Virus genome (UHGV): UHGV-0139776
Strand: one strand, 5' to 3'
From: a virus
DNA length: 64,000 nt
Position numbers and translations under genes: made by a program
Part shown: one piece after another, positions 1 through 40,599 of the stretch
Layout of the letters: each line of letters opens with the position of its first letter
Position numbering within the stretch: the stretch's first letter is position 1
Notes under the pieces: generated by a model
The model's input: only the letters and a program-made list of their open reading frames with translations
What the model was told of the DNA's origin: nothing
Database searches by the model: none

Positions 1-41
1 GAGGGCCACGGAACGGGCACACCAACGGGCAGCGCAGAGCC

Positions 42-67
42 TTCCCCCAAACCAACGTTTCTATGCC
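42..67. other. second crossover-like site (TTCCCCCAAACC-AA-CGTTTCTATGCC) overlapping the fibre stop codon; start of a further cassette
   Basis: Positions 1-55 are identical to 473-527; the minus-strand frame through 59..1 is open and encodes NVGLGEGSALPVGVPVPWP, the same junction peptide. Confidence 0.45.
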
Positions 68-2043
68 GCTCTTACGATGTAATTAAATGCAATATTACGC
101 GGACGAGCTGATACATAAGCCCACCAGTTATATCTTTGGGCACCTTTACTGGATGCATCAAATATCCACTTTTTGCCATTTATGGCCCCCCATTGATTAG
201 AGGTTAAAGTGTCACCAAATCCGTATTGTGTTGAGCTGAGTGAACTGATATCCCCAGTATCATTATCATCAAAACCGGAGACGATAGTGCCTTCCTGAAA
301 TGAAAGTATCTCTCGTCCTGCATCAATACCTCGTCCGTCATCCCAGCCACGGATAAATTCGCCCCGTAAATCCGGTAATTTATTGGTCGGATAAGCCTTT
401 GCCAGCCTGGGGTACATTTCAGAAGAAAATGCTGCGCCGTTACATTTCAGCCAGCCCGTTGGTGGTGTTGCTGAGGGCCACGGAACGGGCACACCAACGG
501 GCAGCGCAGAGCCTTCCCCCAAACCAAGGTAATCAAGAACGCTCTGAATACTGGTCTTACCAAGAATGGCGCGTCCAACACTTGTCAATGCAGTTAACGC
601 GGCACGATCAACACCTGTGAAATAAGGGAGTTTATCTGCTGCTGTAGCTAGTGCCGCTAGAGCAGTGAGCGTAGCGTCTGCCGCTTGCTTTCCATTAGCC
701 AAATCATATGCAGCCTTGACAGCTTTCGGTGTGGCGGCCAGCACTTCAGACGTACTGTTAGTGGCACTACTGAGCTGAGTGATGCCTTTCGCTGTCAATG
801 AAGCTGTTGGCACACCAGTGATCTGATTCCAGGGATGTGTATGACTGGATGGTGCCTTTCCGGCTGCTAGATCGTATGCAGCTTTAACCGCTTTTGGAGT
901 TGCAGCTAATGTTTCAGAAGTGCTGTTGGTGTCGCTACTGAGCTGAACTATCCCTTTTTGTGTCGTGGTTGCATCCTGGGCTGTATACTTCCCGTTAGCC
1001 AAATCATATGCAGCCTTGACAGCTTTCGGTGTGGCGGCCAGCACTTCAGACGTACTGTTAGTGGCACTACTGAGCTGAGTGATGCCTTTCGCTGTCAATG
1101 AAGCTGTTGGCACACCAGTGATCTGATTCCAGGGATGTGTATGACTGGATGGTGCCTTTCCGGCTGCTAGATCGTATGCAGCTTTAACCGCTTTTGGAGT
1201 TGCAGCTAATGTTTCAGAAGTGCTGTTGGTGTCGCTACTGAGCTGAACTATCCCTTTTTGTGTCGTGGTTGCATCCTGGGCTGTATACTTCCCGTTAGCC
1301 AGGTCATATGCAGCCTTGACAGCTTTCGGTGTGGCGGCCAGCACTTCGGACGTACTGTTAGTGGCACTACTGAGCTGAACTAATCCCTTTTGCGTTGTGC
1401 TTGCATCCTGCGCCGTATACTTGCTTTTCGCCAGATCGTAGGCTTTTTTAACTGCCAGCGAACTCGCAGCAACATCACTTCTGGTACTGGTTACAGAGTC
1501 TGAAATATCAATGCCGATCGTGCGGTTGATACGCTCGGATGTATCAATCATCTCTTGAGTAATGGTAGATACGCCAGCAGGGATATTCACCGTACAAACC
1601 AGCAGTTCCCCATCACCTAACTGATATGAATCGGTATAGGTTCTGGCAACAAATTCAGCTGCATGAATATGTGACGCGGTATTCACCTGATAGGTATCTT
1701 CTCCAAGAAGGTATCTTCCCTTCAGCACAATTGCATATTTCTTGCCTGCGTTAAGTGCAAGAGAGATATCCTTACGATGCTGAATAGTTACCTGGTAGAA
1801 TTCACCAATATCCACTGACGCCGCGCCAGCGGTTTTATCTCCATCCACTGAGGTGATTAACAGGTTCATTCCACCGCCAGGCTTAGGCAAGAAACCAGCA
1901 TAAAATCCTGGGTCAACAATTCCCCTGAATTTTCGGTTTAGAGCGGCTGACAGATATGGTTCGTGGTATTGCACATCAGCCACCAGAGCCAACGACTCGG
2001 GTGATGGGTAAGTAACCGATGTAACAACTGTAACGTCATTCAT
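61..2043 (-). CDS. tail fibre protein (S-like) with P2 gpH / Mu S-type repeat motifs and a variable C-terminal receptor-binding cassette
   Basis: ORF track 61..2130; preferred start ATG at 2043 preceded by AAGGA. Motifs LTAKGITQLSSATNSTSEVLAATPKAVKAAYDLA (repeated) and DATLTALAALATAADKLPYFTG are typical of Mu/P1/P2 tail fibres. Stop TAG at 61-63. Confidence 0.8.
   Translation of the reverse strand: MNDVTVVTSVTYPSPESLALVADVQYHEPYLSAALNRKFRGIVDPGFYAGFLPKPGGGMNLLITSVDGDKTAGAASVDIGEFYQVTIQHRKDISLALNAGKKYAIVLKGRYLLGEDTYQVNTASHIHAAEFVARTYTDSYQLGDGELLVCTVNIPAGVSTITQEMIDTSERINRTIGIDISDSVTSTRSDVAASSLAVKKAYDLAKSKYTAQDASTTQKGLVQLSSATNSTSEVLAATPKAVKAAYDLANGKYTAQDATTTQKGIVQLSSDTNSTSETLAATPKAVKAAYDLAAGKAPSSHTHPWNQITGVPTASLTAKGITQLSSATNSTSEVLAATPKAVKAAYDLANGKYTAQDATTTQKGIVQLSSDTNSTSETLAATPKAVKAAYDLAAGKAPSSHTHPWNQITGVPTASLTAKGITQLSSATNSTSEVLAATPKAVKAAYDLANGKQAADATLTALAALATAADKLPYFTGVDRAALTALTSVGRAILGKTSIQSVLDYLGLGEGSALPVGVPVPWPSATPPTGWLKCNGAAFSSEMYPRLAKAYPTNKLPDLRGEFIRGWDDGRGIDAGREILSFQEGTIVSGFDDNDTGDISSLSSTQYGFGDTLTSNQWGAINGKKWIFDASSKGAQRYNWWAYVSARPRNIAFNYIVRAA
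514..539. other. Cin/Gin/Hin-type crossover-like site (TTCCCCCAAACC-AA-GGTAATCAAGAA) at the constant/variable junction of the fibre gene
   Basis: Resembles hix/gix/cix half-sites around a central AA; identity with the copy at 42-67 ends exactly after the central AA dinucleotide. Confidence 0.5.
695..1380. repeat. perfect 300-bp tandem duplication (695-994 = 995-1294) plus a partial third copy, inside the tail fibre gene
   Basis: Direct comparison of the sequence lines: 300 bp identical, in frame (100 aa), third copy about 95 percent identical over 86 bp. Confidence 0.9.
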
Positions 2044-2054
2044 CAAGCATATCC

Positions 2055-2489
2055 TTATGCTGTAGTCGAGTTTATGGCCATAACTGCGGTATATGTTTTG
2101 CCCACATACAGCGAGTCTTCTTGGACACAAATAATGGCGATTGGCTTATTCTCGTTATCCAGAACAACCAGAGTGTTGAATGGGTAGTTTTTCCCTTCCT
2201 GCAACTGACTTTGATCAAGGTCCATTCGGACAGTAATTATCCCGCCTGAGTAGGTTGGAACGAGGTTGATGGTGCAAAATTGACTGGTCAGTTCTGCCAG
2301 ATCGAAAGCCTTTGGCAGTTCTCCAATCTCATAAGTGCCATCTCCTTTCTTAGTAACCAGTGAACTGGTACCGAAAACGGCCTTGCTGATTAAAAATCGA
2401 GAGCCTTTGTTAATGGACGATTCAGCGCGCCGCTGATAGTAATAGTCCAACAACTGACTCTTATAGAGGTTTGTTGAGACGTCAGACAT
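2055..2489 (-). CDS. tail-fibre-associated structural protein (R-like position), 144 aa
   Basis: ORF immediately upstream of the fibre gene in the same operon; no recognisable catalytic motif. Confidence 0.4.
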   Translation of the reverse strand: MSDVSTNLYKSQLLDYYYQRRAESSINKGSRFLISKAVFGTSSLVTKKGDGTYEIGELPKAFDLAELTSQFCTINLVPTYSGGIITVRMDLDQSQLQEGKNYPFNTLVVLDNENKPIAIICVQEDSLYVGKTYTAVMAINSTTA

Positions 2490-5193: not shown

Positions 5194-8100
5194 TCAACTC
5201 TCGCGTAGTCATTCATCAACGGATCATCAATTGACAGTGGTACCGTGCGCATAACGCCCGGCTGAGGCGTGCTGACCTTTACGACAGTTCCCTGGCCTTT
5301 CGCCGAGTCTTTGGTGTGCTCTTCAATCCTGGCAAGCAATGAGGTCATCTGCGCAAACAGCCGCTTCGTTTCACCATCAAGTGAAACGGTATTATCAGCC
5401 AACTGCATTGTCGGCTTGGCACCGGAACCGCCAAGGTCACTAATAACCTGCCCGTCTATCTGCATACGACCGGTTGGTTGCTGCAAATCGTTGGCGGCAG
5501 TCGTCACCTGGGACGTGGAGGCTGGTTCAGGCGCATTATTTTTCCGCATCCCCGGCGAGTTGCGGAGTTTATCGAATAGTCCATCAATCCCCATTTGTGC
5601 GCCGAGTTGGTCAAAGTAACTTGAGTTGCTGGCCACCGGACGCGCCTCTTCAACTGGCATCGGAGTATCAACATACACATTGCCAGCTGCTGTTGCGGTC
5701 CCCTTCCCTCGTGCACGTTCTTCGAGCGTTCCCTGAACGACTTCCCGACGCATACCCCGGCCATTCATGAATTTGTTGACCAGATCGTTAACGCCAACAG
5801 CATTGCCGATTTTGTCTACCAGACCGCCTTTCTCAAACGGGCTATCACCAGGGGTAAACGCCAGACCAGTAGACTGATCGATAACGGCGTTATCAGGCAG
5901 TTGTCCCCTCACTCCATATTGCGCCCCACCCTGTGCTCCTGCCCCAGGTGTATAGATTTCACCACCTAAATAGCGAGCACGATGAGTATTGACCTTGATC
6001 GCGTACTCACGGTTTTCCTTCGATAAGTCACCGGTGCCTTTTTTCCACTTATTAATAGTGCCAAACCCAGCGTTATATGCAGTGATGGCCTCGTTTAAGT
6101 CTCCATTGGCTTGCTTCAGATACTTGCTCATGAGAAGAGCCGCAGCTTCTGCCGATTTCACAGGATCAAACGATTCACCTTCAGCTAAGCCAGTCTCTTC
6201 ACGAGCAATGCCCGTGAACTGAAACATTCCTAGAGCACCAGTTTGGGATTTTGCGTATGGATTACCACCAGATTCAGTTGCAGCAATCGCGTAAAGAGTG
6301 CCTTCAGGAAGACCATATTTATTCTCTAGTTCAGCAAAATACGGAGCTAACTTATCGAGATTTGCCTTACCTTCAGCGCCAAGGCTTCCGACTTTTACAT
6401 CTAAGTTGCCATTATTGTAGGTATCAGCAGCTTTCTGAATGTCATTCCCAGTGCCGGTGGTATTACGCGACGATGATGACGAGCTATTTTGTCCAATAGC
6501 TGAATCAATTTTCCGCACCGCGCTATTGCCCGTTTCTACGGCATTTGCATTGATAATCTGATTGGCAGTTTCTTTAACTGTTTTATTGCTATCTTTCGCC
6601 GTGTCCAGTGCCGCATTTATCACGCGGGTAGCAATATTAGTCTGTTTAGCATCGGATTCAGTTTTAGAATCAGATGTCTCCTGGTGGCTATTAACCGGAG
6701 CTTTTAACTCTGGAGTGATTTCTTTTGCATTAGCCTCGCCGATCGGATTGGGTATTTTTGATACAATCATTGCCGCTGGGGTATTTTTAACGGCATCAAC
6801 CGCTGCATCTAATGCTTTACCGGGTAAATTTTTAACCCCATCCCAAATATTACCAGCCGCCTCTTTAATGTGTTTCCCTGGGTTCTTAATGAAGTCAATT
6901 GCACTATCAATTGCATCACTGAAAACCTGTTTCAGGTTATCGACAGTAAAGAAGTCTTTTATGGCATCCAGCTTTTCAAGCAACTTATTAGATGTATCGC
7001 TAAACCATGCTGAAACAGCATCACCAATCTTTGCTGTGTAATCATCGAACTTGGTAGAAATGGTGTCGCCAAGGTTAGAAATATATGTTTCTAAGTTGGT
7101 AACCCCGCTATCAATGGCCTGGGCAATACTTTCCGTCGAAAATGATTGCAACATATTGCCGATATCCTCAAATCCAAGTGATTTGAGAACATCACCAATA
7201 GCACTGCTAATACCAGATACCAGTCCCCCCAAATCAAGAACATTGGCTAACGTATAAGCGGCTTTTTGCTGGAATGATGGATCTTGTCCTGATTTAAGCC
7301 CAAACGCTCGACGTTGCGCTTCTGTATCATTCCAACCGGTTACCGCATCATAAATACCTCCAGCCACTGTGCCGACTAGGGGAATTGCGCGTAACGCCCC
7401 TTTACCAACTGCCTTTAATCCAAGTTTACCTGCTGCCCGGGCAGCCAAATCTCCGCCTTCATGAGCGAGAGTCTTCTTGCCACCACCGCGTAGCATTCCT
7501 ACAAGTTTCTTTGCCCCCAGAGCGCCAAAAGCGAGTGCTCCAGCTTTTTTCAGCATGCCACGCCCCATTAACAACGACGCGACGCCACCGGCCCCCTTCC
7601 CTAACAGGCTAAATAGTTTGGACAGCAAGCCGCCCTTCTTTTTACCGGTGTTTTTGGCTATCTGATCAAGGGCGCGGAGAATCTTGTCATTGCCCTCTTT
7701 AATTTCGCTGGTCTGCTCCTGAAGTTCCTGAACCGTCCGTTTTTGGGTGTTAACCTGAACGACATCGGCACTATTTTGCGATTTACGCCTAAAAAAACCT
7801 TTTCTACGGCTGTTATCGTCATTGCCACGAATCACATCGGCAATAGACTTTCTGGCACCATTAAGCGATCCACCAACTTCTTTTGATATCCCGCCAAGCT
7901 CCTTCCCTGCTGCCCACAATGGACCAGCAACGGCATAACCTAACGCATCGACGGCACGAGTCTCTGAAGGGTTACCTATGCCTTCAGCTACTTTTGACAG
8001 TTTTTTTAATAAACCTGATTCAGCATTTAGACGCTCATCATCCTCTTTGCGCCTAGCCTTTTCAGCACGTTCAGCACGGGCATCTTCCGCTGCGGCCTTA

Positions 8101-32616: not shown

Positions 32617-32692
32617 GATGGTGTAGCTCAGCGGTTAGAGCGGTTGACTGTTAATCAACGGGTCGATGGTTCAAATCCATCCACCATCGCCA
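32617..32692 (+). tRNA. tRNA-Asn (anticodon GUU)
   Basis: Cloverleaf: acceptor GATGGTG/CACCATC, anticodon loop CUGUUAA, T-arm GGTTCAAATCC, encoded CCA. Confidence 0.85.
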
Positions 32693-32694
32693 AT

Positions 32695-32770
32695 GCCGGT
32701 TTAGCTCAGTTGGTAGAGCGCCTGCCTTGTAAGCAGGATGTCAGCGGTTCGAGTCCGTTAATCGGCACCA
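32695..32770 (+). tRNA. tRNA-Thr (anticodon UGU)
   Basis: Acceptor GCCGGTT/AATCGGC, anticodon loop CUUGUAA, T-arm GGTTCGAGTCC, encoded CCA. Confidence 0.85.
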
Positions 32771-33575
32771 GCACAACAGGTAAGGGTATTTTGCGACGTC
32801 GGAGATCGCCGAGCTTGGCAGAGGGTTCGAATCCCTACGAAGTACCCTTACCGTTGTGATGAATGCGCAGGCTGATGCGCGAAAGACATTGCAGCTATTG
32901 CGGAAAAGAGCTGTTCGGCGGGGCAATTAAACGCCCGTGAGAGTCTGAAATAACCGCAAGCCGGAGATCAGCACCGGTCATCACAACACAACAGGTAAGG
33001 GCATTCTCCCTTATGGGGCTTGGCTTAAATGCATCGAGTGCTCTTACCGTTGTGATGAAGTGCAGCTCTTTGAAGCAACCAGAAGATAAGCATCTGGCTT
33101 CACAACATAAACCGCAGGAACGACCAATAAACGGTAGTCCGTATGGAGAACACCCCGTTGAGGAAGAGGCCTGGCCGGAACCGTAACCGGCACTACAACG
33201 TTGAGAACACTGGCGTAACGGGGTCATATCCCAATCTACGAATAAATGTTGCGTTGCAGCGTGACAACCAGTGTTCTCAACATTGTGGTGAATGCACAGG
33301 CTGATGTGCCGCAACTACAGTAGTGCGCGCTTTGCGGGGCTTGCTACAACCCTGTGTCGGAGTTCAGCACCGACCATCACAGTTTGATTCTCTGGCATGA
33401 GCATAACGCTGAAATAAGTCCAGTCTGGTGCGGCCCGATCACCCGCCGTTAGCTCCACGAAACGGAGCACGTAACAGGTAAGAGCATTCTCCTGTAACGG
33501 GTTCATATCCCAATCTACAGGTCCACCAGGAATGCTCTTTCCGTTGCGGTGAATGCGGCTAAGCGCACGCGGAAC
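32771..33575 (+). repeat. array of four structured hairpin units (about 32776-32880, 32990-33066, 33194-33312, 33470-33572), each a long stem plus GTTGTGATGAATGC-type tail and short hairpin
   Basis: Conserved stem bases ACAACAGGTAAGRG / CTTACCGTTGTG, variable interiors, compensatory changes in the 3-prime mini-hairpin (GCGCA..TGCGC versus GCACA..TGTGC); unit 1 contains a T-arm-like GGGTTCGAATCCC. Confidence 0.5.
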
Positions 33576-33697
33576 AGTTAAAACAATCCTCCTTAATGGT
33601 TAAACATTCCGACGTTAATTGTTAACTGGTTAACGTCACCGGGAGGCACTCGGCACCGCAATCTAATAAATATGTCACTTTTATTGAGGGATAACCA

Positions 33698-34132
33698 ATG
33701 TTCGGTAAATTGTTCGGCAAGAAAGTCGCTTCTGCAAAAGTAGAGCTGAAAAAAGTTGAGAATCGCGATCTGATGGAGGCCATCATCGGTGGCTGTTTGT
33801 TGGTGTCTGCCGCTGATGGTGAAATCGAAAAAGAAGAAACAGCGAAACTTGATCAGCTTGTCCGCTCTAATCCGCGTCTTAGTCATTTTGGTAACGAAAT
33901 TACTGCAACAATTACCCGCTTTACCGAGCAACTGGAAGCTGGCTTCCGTGTTGGTCGCATGAATATCCTTCGCGAAATTGAAGATATCAAAAACGATCCA
34001 AAAGAAGCGGAAGAAGTATTCGTTAACATGCTGACAATTGCAGAAGCGGACGGTGAAATCGAGCCAGCAGAACACAAAGTACTGGAAGAAGTAGGCCGTC
34101 GTTTAGGTCTTCGTGTGGAAGATTATCTGTAA
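33698..34132 (+). CDS. tciA: TerB-like protein, 144 aa
   Basis: TerB-like duplicated motif (AADGEIEKEE ... AEADGEIEPAE). Confidence 0.65.
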   Translation: MFGKLFGKKVASAKVELKKVENRDLMEAIIGGCLLVSAADGEIEKEETAKLDQLVRSNPRLSHFGNEITATITRFTEQLEAGFRVGRMNILREIEDIKNDPKEAEEVFVNMLTIAEADGEIEPAEHKVLEEVGRRLGLRVEDYL

Positions 34133-34296
34133 TGGCAAGCAAGGCACGTATCGCAATCGCCATTGGTTTTCTCTTGCTGTCCGTGCTGGTGGATTTCACC
34201 AGCACAATCCTGTCAGTTTTATCGGACGGGGCGTTGGTGGCAGTAGCTGTAACATTGGTATGGCCGATATTAAAAACAGCTTCTAAGGATCAGTGA
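34132..34296 (+). CDS. small membrane protein, 54 aa
   Basis: ATG overlaps the tciA stop; hydrophobic. Confidence 0.4.
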   Translation: MASKARIAIAIGFLLLSVLVDFTSTILSVLSDGALVAVAVTLVWPILKTASKDQ

Positions 34297-34403
34297 TGGG
34301 CTTCTGGGATTTTGCTGACAAGCATCCAATTGTTCTCGTTGTCATTGCTGGCATAGTTGTAGGCGGTATTGCTGGCGTCATAGAAGCACTCAGGAAACAG
34401 TAA
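34296..34403 (+). CDS. small membrane protein, 35 aa
   Basis: Start overlaps the upstream stop; single TM segment IVLVVIAGIVVGGIAGVI. Confidence 0.35.
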   Translation: MGFWDFADKHPIVLVVIAGIVVGGIAGVIEALRKQ

Positions 34404-34406
34404 TCC

Positions 34407-34482
34407 GGCCCTTTAGCTCAGTGGTTAGAGCTGGCGACTCATAATCGCACGGTCACCGGTTCAAGTCCGGTAGGGGCCACCA
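34407..34482 (+). tRNA. tRNA with CAU anticodon (Met or lysidine-modified Ile)
   Basis: Acceptor GGCCCTT/AGGGGCC, anticodon loop CUCAUAA, T-arm GGTTCAAGTCC, encoded CCA. Confidence 0.8.

Positions 34483-37452: not shown

Positions 37453-40599
<3,147 letters not shown>

Follow-up and report, generated by a model that had tools for sequence, protein, structure and literature searches.

The window, by which we mean the whole 64-kb stretch of DNA that was analysed, opens with the 3′ end of a tail-fibre gene, S, which is followed at higher coordinates by gene R of the same operon (Table 1). The S protein is 61% identical to S of phage P1 over residues 1–516, and window positions 1355–2200 match the S and R genes of P1, P7 and other Punavirus records with a DNA identity of 94–96.5%. 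Pfam placed a Phage Tail Collar domain (PF07484) at the C-terminus of S, and NCBIfam assigned neither the fibre nor the chaperone to a specific family. The tandem repeat inside the constant part of S, hereafter Sc, represents an in-frame duplication of 100 aa. The genes run S, R, gp16, baseplate and then a tape measure containing an SLT domain, in the order of P1, and positions 40,000–64,000 are about 98% identical to P1-like E. coli plasmids. These similarities identify the window as part of a P1-like phage-plasmid.

Table 1 Features of the tail-fibre locus at the left end of the window
Feature	Position	Strand	Remarks
Start of cassette B, second silent fibre cassette	1..55	minus	ends at contig/window start
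26-bp Din-family crossover site, cassette/cassette type	42..67	no strand	TTCCCCCAAACC AA CGTTTCTATGCC
Tail-fibre gene S	61-2043	minus	ATG at 2043, TAG 63..61, 660 aa
TAG stop codon of S	61..63	minus	inside right half of first site (42-67)
Expressed variable cassette A, type T1	64..525	minus	154 aa, GLGEGS to NYIVRAA
Cassette A, conserved C-terminus	64-105	minus	RPRNIAFNYIVRAA
Cassette A, variable body	about 106-297	minus	
Cassette A, conserved Collar-domain module	about 298-525	minus	
26-bp crossover site, constant/variable junction of S	514..539	no strand	TTCCCCCAAACC AA GGTAATCAAGAA
Constant part Sc of S	528..2043	minus	six Phage_fiber_2 repeats, Pfam PF03406
300-bp tandem repeat inside Sc	688..1378	minus	2.3 copies, 98%
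Gene R (P1 tail-fibre protein R)	2055..2489	minus	PF26881; upstream of S, same operon

The initial annotation had noticed that positions 1–55 recur at 473–527 and that the match breaks off behind the central AA of a 26-bp site. A repeat search confirmed this: all 55 positions match within 540 bases, which is far above chance, and the search extended the repeat to 58 nt at 98%, with the sole mismatch at 56/528. The two copies thus stop being identical directly after the central AA (54–55 and 526–527), beyond which the right half-sites diverge (CGTTTCTATGCC at 56–67 against GGTAATCAAGAA at 528–539). The 14-mer TTCCCCCAAACCAA has two exact copies in the 64-kb window, both on the plus strand, and these define the only two sites in the window, which lie 472 nt apart in direct orientation. 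Across the site at 514–539 the coding strand reads LDYLGLGE, and the 660-aa open reading frame of S passes through it uninterrupted. At the other site, the right half is the end of cassette A, stop codon included, and the earlier remark that the fibre terminates within a site was therefore correct. The right limit of the repeat, after the central AA, is biological.

We compared these sites with those of the Min system of plasmid p15B, which has six crossover sites, using the mix site sequences in Table 3 of PMC3241671. The site at 514–539 is identical to mixQ''R' at 26 of 26 bases, and the site at 42–67 differs by 2 nt (24/26) from mixMr''N', mixO''P' and mixP''Q' (TTCCCCTAAACC AA CGTTTTTATGCC; PMC3241671). 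By contrast, the P1 sites cixL and cixR have only the pattern TTC.C..AAACC AA in common with the window sites and differ from them in both halves.

At the first site and to its left lies the beginning of another cassette, B, consisting of the left half-site with its central AA (42–55) and 41 nt of coding sequence for GLGEGSALPVGVPVPWP. The initial annotation had proposed such a second cassette at the window edge. A cassette start is indeed present. The frame 53..3 on the minus strand, which reads GLGEGSALPVGVPVPWP, is one base off from the frame of the S stop codon, and the cassette start is therefore silent and not a read-through. A precise exchange at the AA would put the beginning of cassette B (GLGEGS...) in frame. 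The Phage Tail Collar domain (PF07484) begins with the sequence GEGSALPVGVPVPWP. Describing this junction as of Mu/P1/P2 type was imprecise, as the variable part of P1 begins with RELGTSGEK and that of the window with GEGSALPVGVPVPWP. Tips of this Collar-domain kind also occur in p15B, e14 and lambda Stf.

The organization that the window only begins to reveal was mapped in seven complete or near-complete records of P1-like relatives (six plasmids and one phage) and in one chromosomal prophage. These eight relatives carry 5–10 sites per record, and in six of the eight the retrieved stretches have sites on both strands. Each relative has one site with the Sc right half GGTAAT[C/T]AAGAA and one with the right half CGTTTTAGTCTT, the latter adjoining the recombinase gene; in the remaining sites, the right half is the end of the neighbouring cassette. 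The invertase-proximal site, TTCCCC[C/T]AAACC AA CGTTTTAGTCTT, is the p15B site mixMI''L' in four records and is one base off in a fifth. In pSA186_4 and phage vB_EcoM-673R5, the site at the Sc junction is opposed to those at the invertase end. The 26-mer of window positions 42–67 occurs unchanged in pSA186_4 (L002), at 8042 and 10020. The cassettes of the relatives encode 143–169 aa and share their first ~76 residues (the Collar domain) and their last 14 (RPRNIAFNYIVRAA), with a middle that differs. Their conserved 5′ module spans ~225 nt with 84–94% identity between cassettes. The cassettes in the arrays have no chaperone gene of their own, and most arrays contain one chaperone gene for the whole array. 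Annotations routinely list silent cassettes of this kind as "phage tail protein" genes in their own right.

A Min-type serine invertase adjoins the array in all six relatives that were read across that flank. It is a protein of 190 aa with Resolvase and HTH_7 domains (UniRef representative Q05517_ECOLX) and is 74% identical to Cin of P1; the record of phage vB_EcoM-673R5 lists it in two annotated pieces, Hin1 and Hin2. By alignment, the first 100 nt of min appear to correspond to the 5′ part of P1 cin with its annotated inversion enhancer (ungapped, 79%). The prophage of E. coli A33 encodes a Min-like invertase with 182 of 190 residues identical. Further sites and a serine invertase, to which the initial annotation had pointed as the expected companions of the window sites, are thus found in the relatives, and its suggestion of a multi-site, Min-like arrangement is borne out, to the extent that the window and its relatives permit, by the identity with mixQ''R', the P1-like backbone and the arrays just described. 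From the identity of the sites and the homology of the recombinase in the relatives, the system would be of the Din-family serine-invertase kind, and it appears to be the Min system of p15B itself or a direct relative, on a P1-like backbone.

Comparison of the records indicates that the cassettes are shuffled. Twelve cassette types were distinguished across the mapped relatives, and one and the same type can be expressed, that is, fused to Sc, in one record and lie silent in another. T9 is expressed in pSA186_4 and silent in L010, L012, L013 and L014; T5 is expressed in two records (L013, L014) and silent in two others (L002, L012), and the silent copy in L012 encodes a protein identical to that of the expressed copy in L013; T4 is the expressed type in L012 but lies silent in L002, L010 and L013. 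The T1 cassette of the window is silent in both pSA186_4 and the E. coli A33 prophage, and window positions 61–527 differ from the silent T1 of pSA186_4 by 8 mismatches in 467 nt. Window positions 1–530 are collinear with both records, at 97.2% identity for pSA186_4 and 95.8% for E. coli A33. Past 527 the window enters Sc, which in pSA186_4 is on the opposite strand, and this loss of collinearity puts the breakpoint at the central AA. Such a breakpoint would fit the prediction for a single Min inversion. On this comparison, starting from a pSA186_4-like array, one inversion with its crossovers at the Sc and T1 sites would produce the arrangement of the window, with Sc–T1 followed by T4 in direct orientation.

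The identity of cassette B can be approached in the same way. Window positions 1–75 are identical, at 75 of 75 positions, to the junction between the start of T4 and the end of T1 in the E. coli A33 chromosome, where the cassette that opens with the same 55-mer is a T4-type cassette of 159 aa. Because of this match, cassette B is probably of the T4 type. In pSA186_4, T4 is likewise the left neighbour of T1. The cassette/cassette junction of window positions 1–75 is widespread: of 5,426 complete E. coli genomes, 307 contain a match, for the most part within a chromosomal prophage.

We propose the following mechanism. The constant 5′ part of S ends at a 26-bp crossover site, behind which, as in the relatives, short cassettes of about 143–169 aa would follow head to tail. 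Every cassette begins with the same left half-site and the Collar-domain module and ends with RPRNIAFNYIVRAA, its stop codon lying in the right half of the next site. The Min invertase, encoded beside the array, would act on pairs of inversely oriented sites and exchange DNA at their central AA, such that the inversion of the intervening DNA brings a different cassette in frame with Sc and alters the receptor-binding tip of the fibre. Cassettes caught in the same inversion would come to stand in direct orientation behind the expressed one. This is the state captured in the window, with Sc–T1 followed by the start of a second cassette, probably of the T4 type. Taking the site identity, the backbone and the relatives together, we consider it highly probable that the window opens inside a Min-type multiple DNA inversion region of a P1-like phage-plasmid, as on p15B.

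The orientation of the two window sites deserves comment, as the initial annotation set it apart from the canonical two-site invertible segment and raised, next to a multi-site arrangement, the replacement of a cassette by deletion. Recombination between the direct sites or modules could in principle drop cassette A and join B to Sc, a programmed switch that would work in one direction only. The direct orientation of both sites would suit such an event, as would the fact that cassette B would start in frame after a precise exchange at the AA. The number of cassettes also varies among the relatives (5–10), and one plasmid, pGPT24-01-B, carries the same cassette twice in tandem. The varying numbers and the tandem duplicate indicate that unequal, homologous exchange between direct repeats occurs over evolutionary time; we take this to be, judging from the sequences compared, an evolutionary side process that also happens. 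A programmed deletion is nevertheless very improbable. The relatives retain large sets of cassettes in both orientations with the invertase adjacent, a pattern that marks inversion, whereas progressive loss would not leave it. Moreover, Din-family invertases such as Hin, Gin and Cin need an enhancer and Fis and are well established to favour inverted sites strongly, deletion between direct sites being rare. Since co-flipped cassettes end up in direct orientation, directly repeated neighbouring sites are expected under the inversion mechanism, and the orientation seen here is a normal state of an array after inversion.

We then considered what the contig end contributes to the picture. The start of the window is base 1 of ena:ERZ1311524:NODE_54_length_95183_cov_6.59 (hereafter NODE_54), the one contig of the public collection on which this fibre protein was found. 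Its name has the SPAdes format, and its coverage is 6.6x. The largest default k of metaSPAdes is 55, and a contig that ends at a branching vertex would open with the last 55 shared bases before the divergence. The repeat has precisely this length, 55 nt, and its first base is that of the contig. Its left limit is thus most likely an assembly boundary (k = 55), and the true repeat is at least 55 nt.

These same features could be read as an assembly artefact, in which the first 55 bases are a k-mer overlap, or Sc–T1 is a wrong path, and no second cassette follows T1. Besides the exact length of the repeat from contig base 1, the SPAdes-format name and the 6.6x coverage, such a reading could draw on the long, near-identical 5′ modules that the cassettes have in common. 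Against it, the reads must have contained the 56-mer made up of the 55-mer and the C at base 56 for the contig to start as it does; the first 75 bases of the window match, at 75 of 75 positions, junctions in two independent complete chromosomes; and positions 1–530 are collinear with pSA186_4 and E. coli A33. The idea that Sc–T1 is a mis-joined path is disfavoured by the distribution of mismatches, since positions 139–468 have zero mismatches to T1 of pSA186_4, with no sign of a path switch inside T1, and positions 437–527 have zero mismatches to the T4 module of A33. The mismatch pattern near the site looks like natural mosaicism or localized conversion rather than a path error, as far as alignment can tell. 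We therefore regard an artefact as very unlikely. A more limited caution does apply to the fusion itself. The exact repeat that the Sc–T1 join crosses is no shorter than the assembler's k, the coverage of the contig is 6.6x, and no other searched record has the same T1 fused to Sc at high identity; which cassette was expressed in the sample thus rests on the path chosen by the assembler. The plasmid pVTB937v-2 (L008) was examined as an independent T1–Sc fusion and discarded, as a BLAST search with window positions 1–700 matched conserved modules only and the T1 body (106–318) had no match in it.

Neither the invertase nor the tail-fibre assembly genes were found in the 64-kb window by tblastn. 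This leaves room for a static remnant, in which the array is present and the invertase is missing from the element or broken, so that the fibre is fixed as Sc–T1 and the second site is a fossil. Truncated or rearranged cin/min genes have been reported from some P1-like plasmids (PMC6906374). However, in the gene order of P1 the invertase and the tail-fibre assembly genes are on the far side of the cassettes, which would place them outside the window, in the other 31 kb of NODE_54. The length of NODE_54, 95,183, matches that of the complete relatives (95–97 kb), and an intact gene for the 190-aa invertase is present in six of six relatives read across the flank, with the two annotated fragments in the phage record. 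Both window sites are intact, one of them being identical to a p15B site, and invertases of other prophages are able to act in trans (PMC4134206). A protein search with the relatives' invertase gave cluster representatives, and the one followed up lies in P2-like prophages and not on NODE_54. On balance, a static remnant seems unlikely, though less so than an artefact or a deletion, and we infer that the invertase and the other cassettes lie on NODE_54 beyond the window and that the system is active there.

How does this region compare with known systems? The Min system of the E. coli plasmid p15B was reportedly described by Sandmeier, Iida, Arber and colleagues in 1990–1992. It shares with the window the mix-type 26-bp sites, their position at the Sc end of S and a P1-related backbone, and with the relatives the invertase-proximal site, which matches mixMI''L', and the adjacent Din-family invertase. 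It differs in scale, as p15B has six sites and the relatives have up to 9–10, with at least 12 cassette types. The Cin system of P1, with which we group the Gin system and G-segment of Mu as a comparison, has the same operon of R and S, the same crossover position (...YLGL|), the central AA and the left half-site TTC.C..AAACC, as well as the recombinase related to that of the relatives (74% identity). The C-segment of P1 nevertheless has two inverted sites bounding one segment of 4.2 kb, with two Sv parts of ~530 aa that have their own chaperones, U and U', whereas in the window and the relatives the cassettes are many and short (~150 aa), the sites are tandem and direct, and a single chaperone gene usually serves the array. 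Two inverted cix sites flanking an Sv–U/Sv'–U' segment, the two-site switch of the P1 type, are thus not what is found here.

Also comparable are the switches of E. coli prophages, including Pin and the P-segment of e14, which have Collar-domain fibre tips and near-identical sites. Invertible fibre regions with 26-bp sites of the window type have been described in E. coli prophages (PMC4134206), and reverse-complementing the 3′ site of EC958 Phi2, GAGAGATAAACGTT GGTTTGGGGGAA (PMC4134206), gives a site that shares this left half with those of the window. The E. coli A33 prophage has both the same 75-nt junction and a Min-like invertase. These chromosomal switches differ from the present region in their other tail modules, and most of the described cases have two sites. 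The initial annotation had also called the arrangement shufflon-like. As an analogy this holds, as the R64 shufflon follows the same logic, in which several sites bound overlapping invertible segments and a single protein is given alternative C-termini. The likeness does not extend to the machinery: R64 uses the tyrosine recombinase Rci on sfx sites to vary a pilus tip adhesin, whereas the sites here are Din-type 26-mers and the recombinase in the relatives is a serine invertase.

Since 1990, Min has served as a standard example of how multiple DNA inversion varies host range, and the region at the left end of the window is an ordinary, already described system with nothing new in it. Of mild interest are the size of the present arrays, which exceeds that of p15B with its six sites, and the many cassettes that a single chaperone gene would have to serve. 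In this respect, we entertain as possible, but doubtful, a reading in which the present arrays are an expanded form of Min, with 9–10 sites per element, at least 12 short Collar-domain cassettes from a pool near base-identical to that of chromosomal P2-like prophages, and usually a single chaperone gene. That gene may be locked in one central block and stand antisense to S in some isomers. If this reading of the arrays as an expanded Min were true, most tips would fold without a cognate, co-transcribed Tfa, and whole arrays would move between unrelated phage types.

The finding also bears on how such elements are read from metagenomes. Regions of the Min type break short-read assemblies exactly at the crossover site, as in NODE_54, and the contig ends and the apparently "expressed" cassette of P1-like elements from metagenomes should therefore not be taken at face value. 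The cassette pool sets which hosts can be reached by these widespread and often resistance-carrying phage-plasmids.

The 5′ conserved module of the fibre cassettes is not fixed within a cassette type: its alleles (EMYPRLAKAYPTNKL, EKYPNLAKVYPTLKL and EEYPELAKAYPTNKL) differ by record among pSA186_4 (L002), pVTB937v-2 (L008), the Escherichia coli A33 prophage (L015) and two other relatives, L011 and L012. The expressed cassette of the window, T1, agrees with T1 of pSA186_4 up to position 468 but, over 437-527, with the module of the T4 cassette of A33. These sequence comparisons suggest gene conversion between cassettes close to the crossover site. In pGPT24-01-B (L013), the T12 cassette (WP_023156927.1) is present as two tandem copies (5755-6622), a sign that direct cassette repeats have undergone unequal exchange.

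Most relatives' arrays contain one tail-fibre assembly gene, tfa (Caudo_TAP), and the placement of this single gene is constant, in the block T9 → tfa → ← T2. P1 has two convergent tfa genes, as does L014.

Mapped features of the window and of related arrays
Feature	Location	Orientation or context
tfa (Caudo_TAP)	L002 6010-6621	
tfa (Caudo_TAP)	L010 6021-6632	antisense to fibre gene S
tfa (Caudo_TAP)	L011 5843-6484	antisense to fibre gene S
two tfa genes	L014 2403-3393	convergent
tandem repeat, 300-bp unit, 2.3 copies, 98%	window 688-1378	within constant part of S
three tRNA genes (Asn-GTT, Thr-TGT, Met-CAT)	window 32617-34482	+ strand
Min-type array in chromosomal prophage	L015, E. coli A33 chromosome 4993184-5007258	P2-like tail module

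The repeat in the tail-fibre gene S is an in-frame duplication of 100 aa. Across relatives the length of S lies between 660 and about 1030 aa, so the number of repeat copies seems to vary between them; the count in the window could be wrong, as this is a short-read contig. In the deposited records of L001, L008, L010 and L011, cassettes and fibre genes of the array region are broken by frameshifts or truncation; these defects are probably consensus errors of long reads or mixtures of isomers in the assembly. Silent cassettes are annotated in the relatives' records as separate 'phage tail protein' genes. Carriage of tRNA genes, as in the window, is known for P1-like genomes.

An array of the same kind also lies in the chromosome of E. 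coli A33, in a prophage whose tail module is P2-like. This array has 7 sites, its invertase is Min-like (182 of 190 residues identical), and its junction is identical to window 1-75 at all 75 positions. Matches to this junction occur at 477 places in complete E. coli genomes, and 431 of them are chromosomal. Whole arrays seem to have been exchanged between unrelated phage types.
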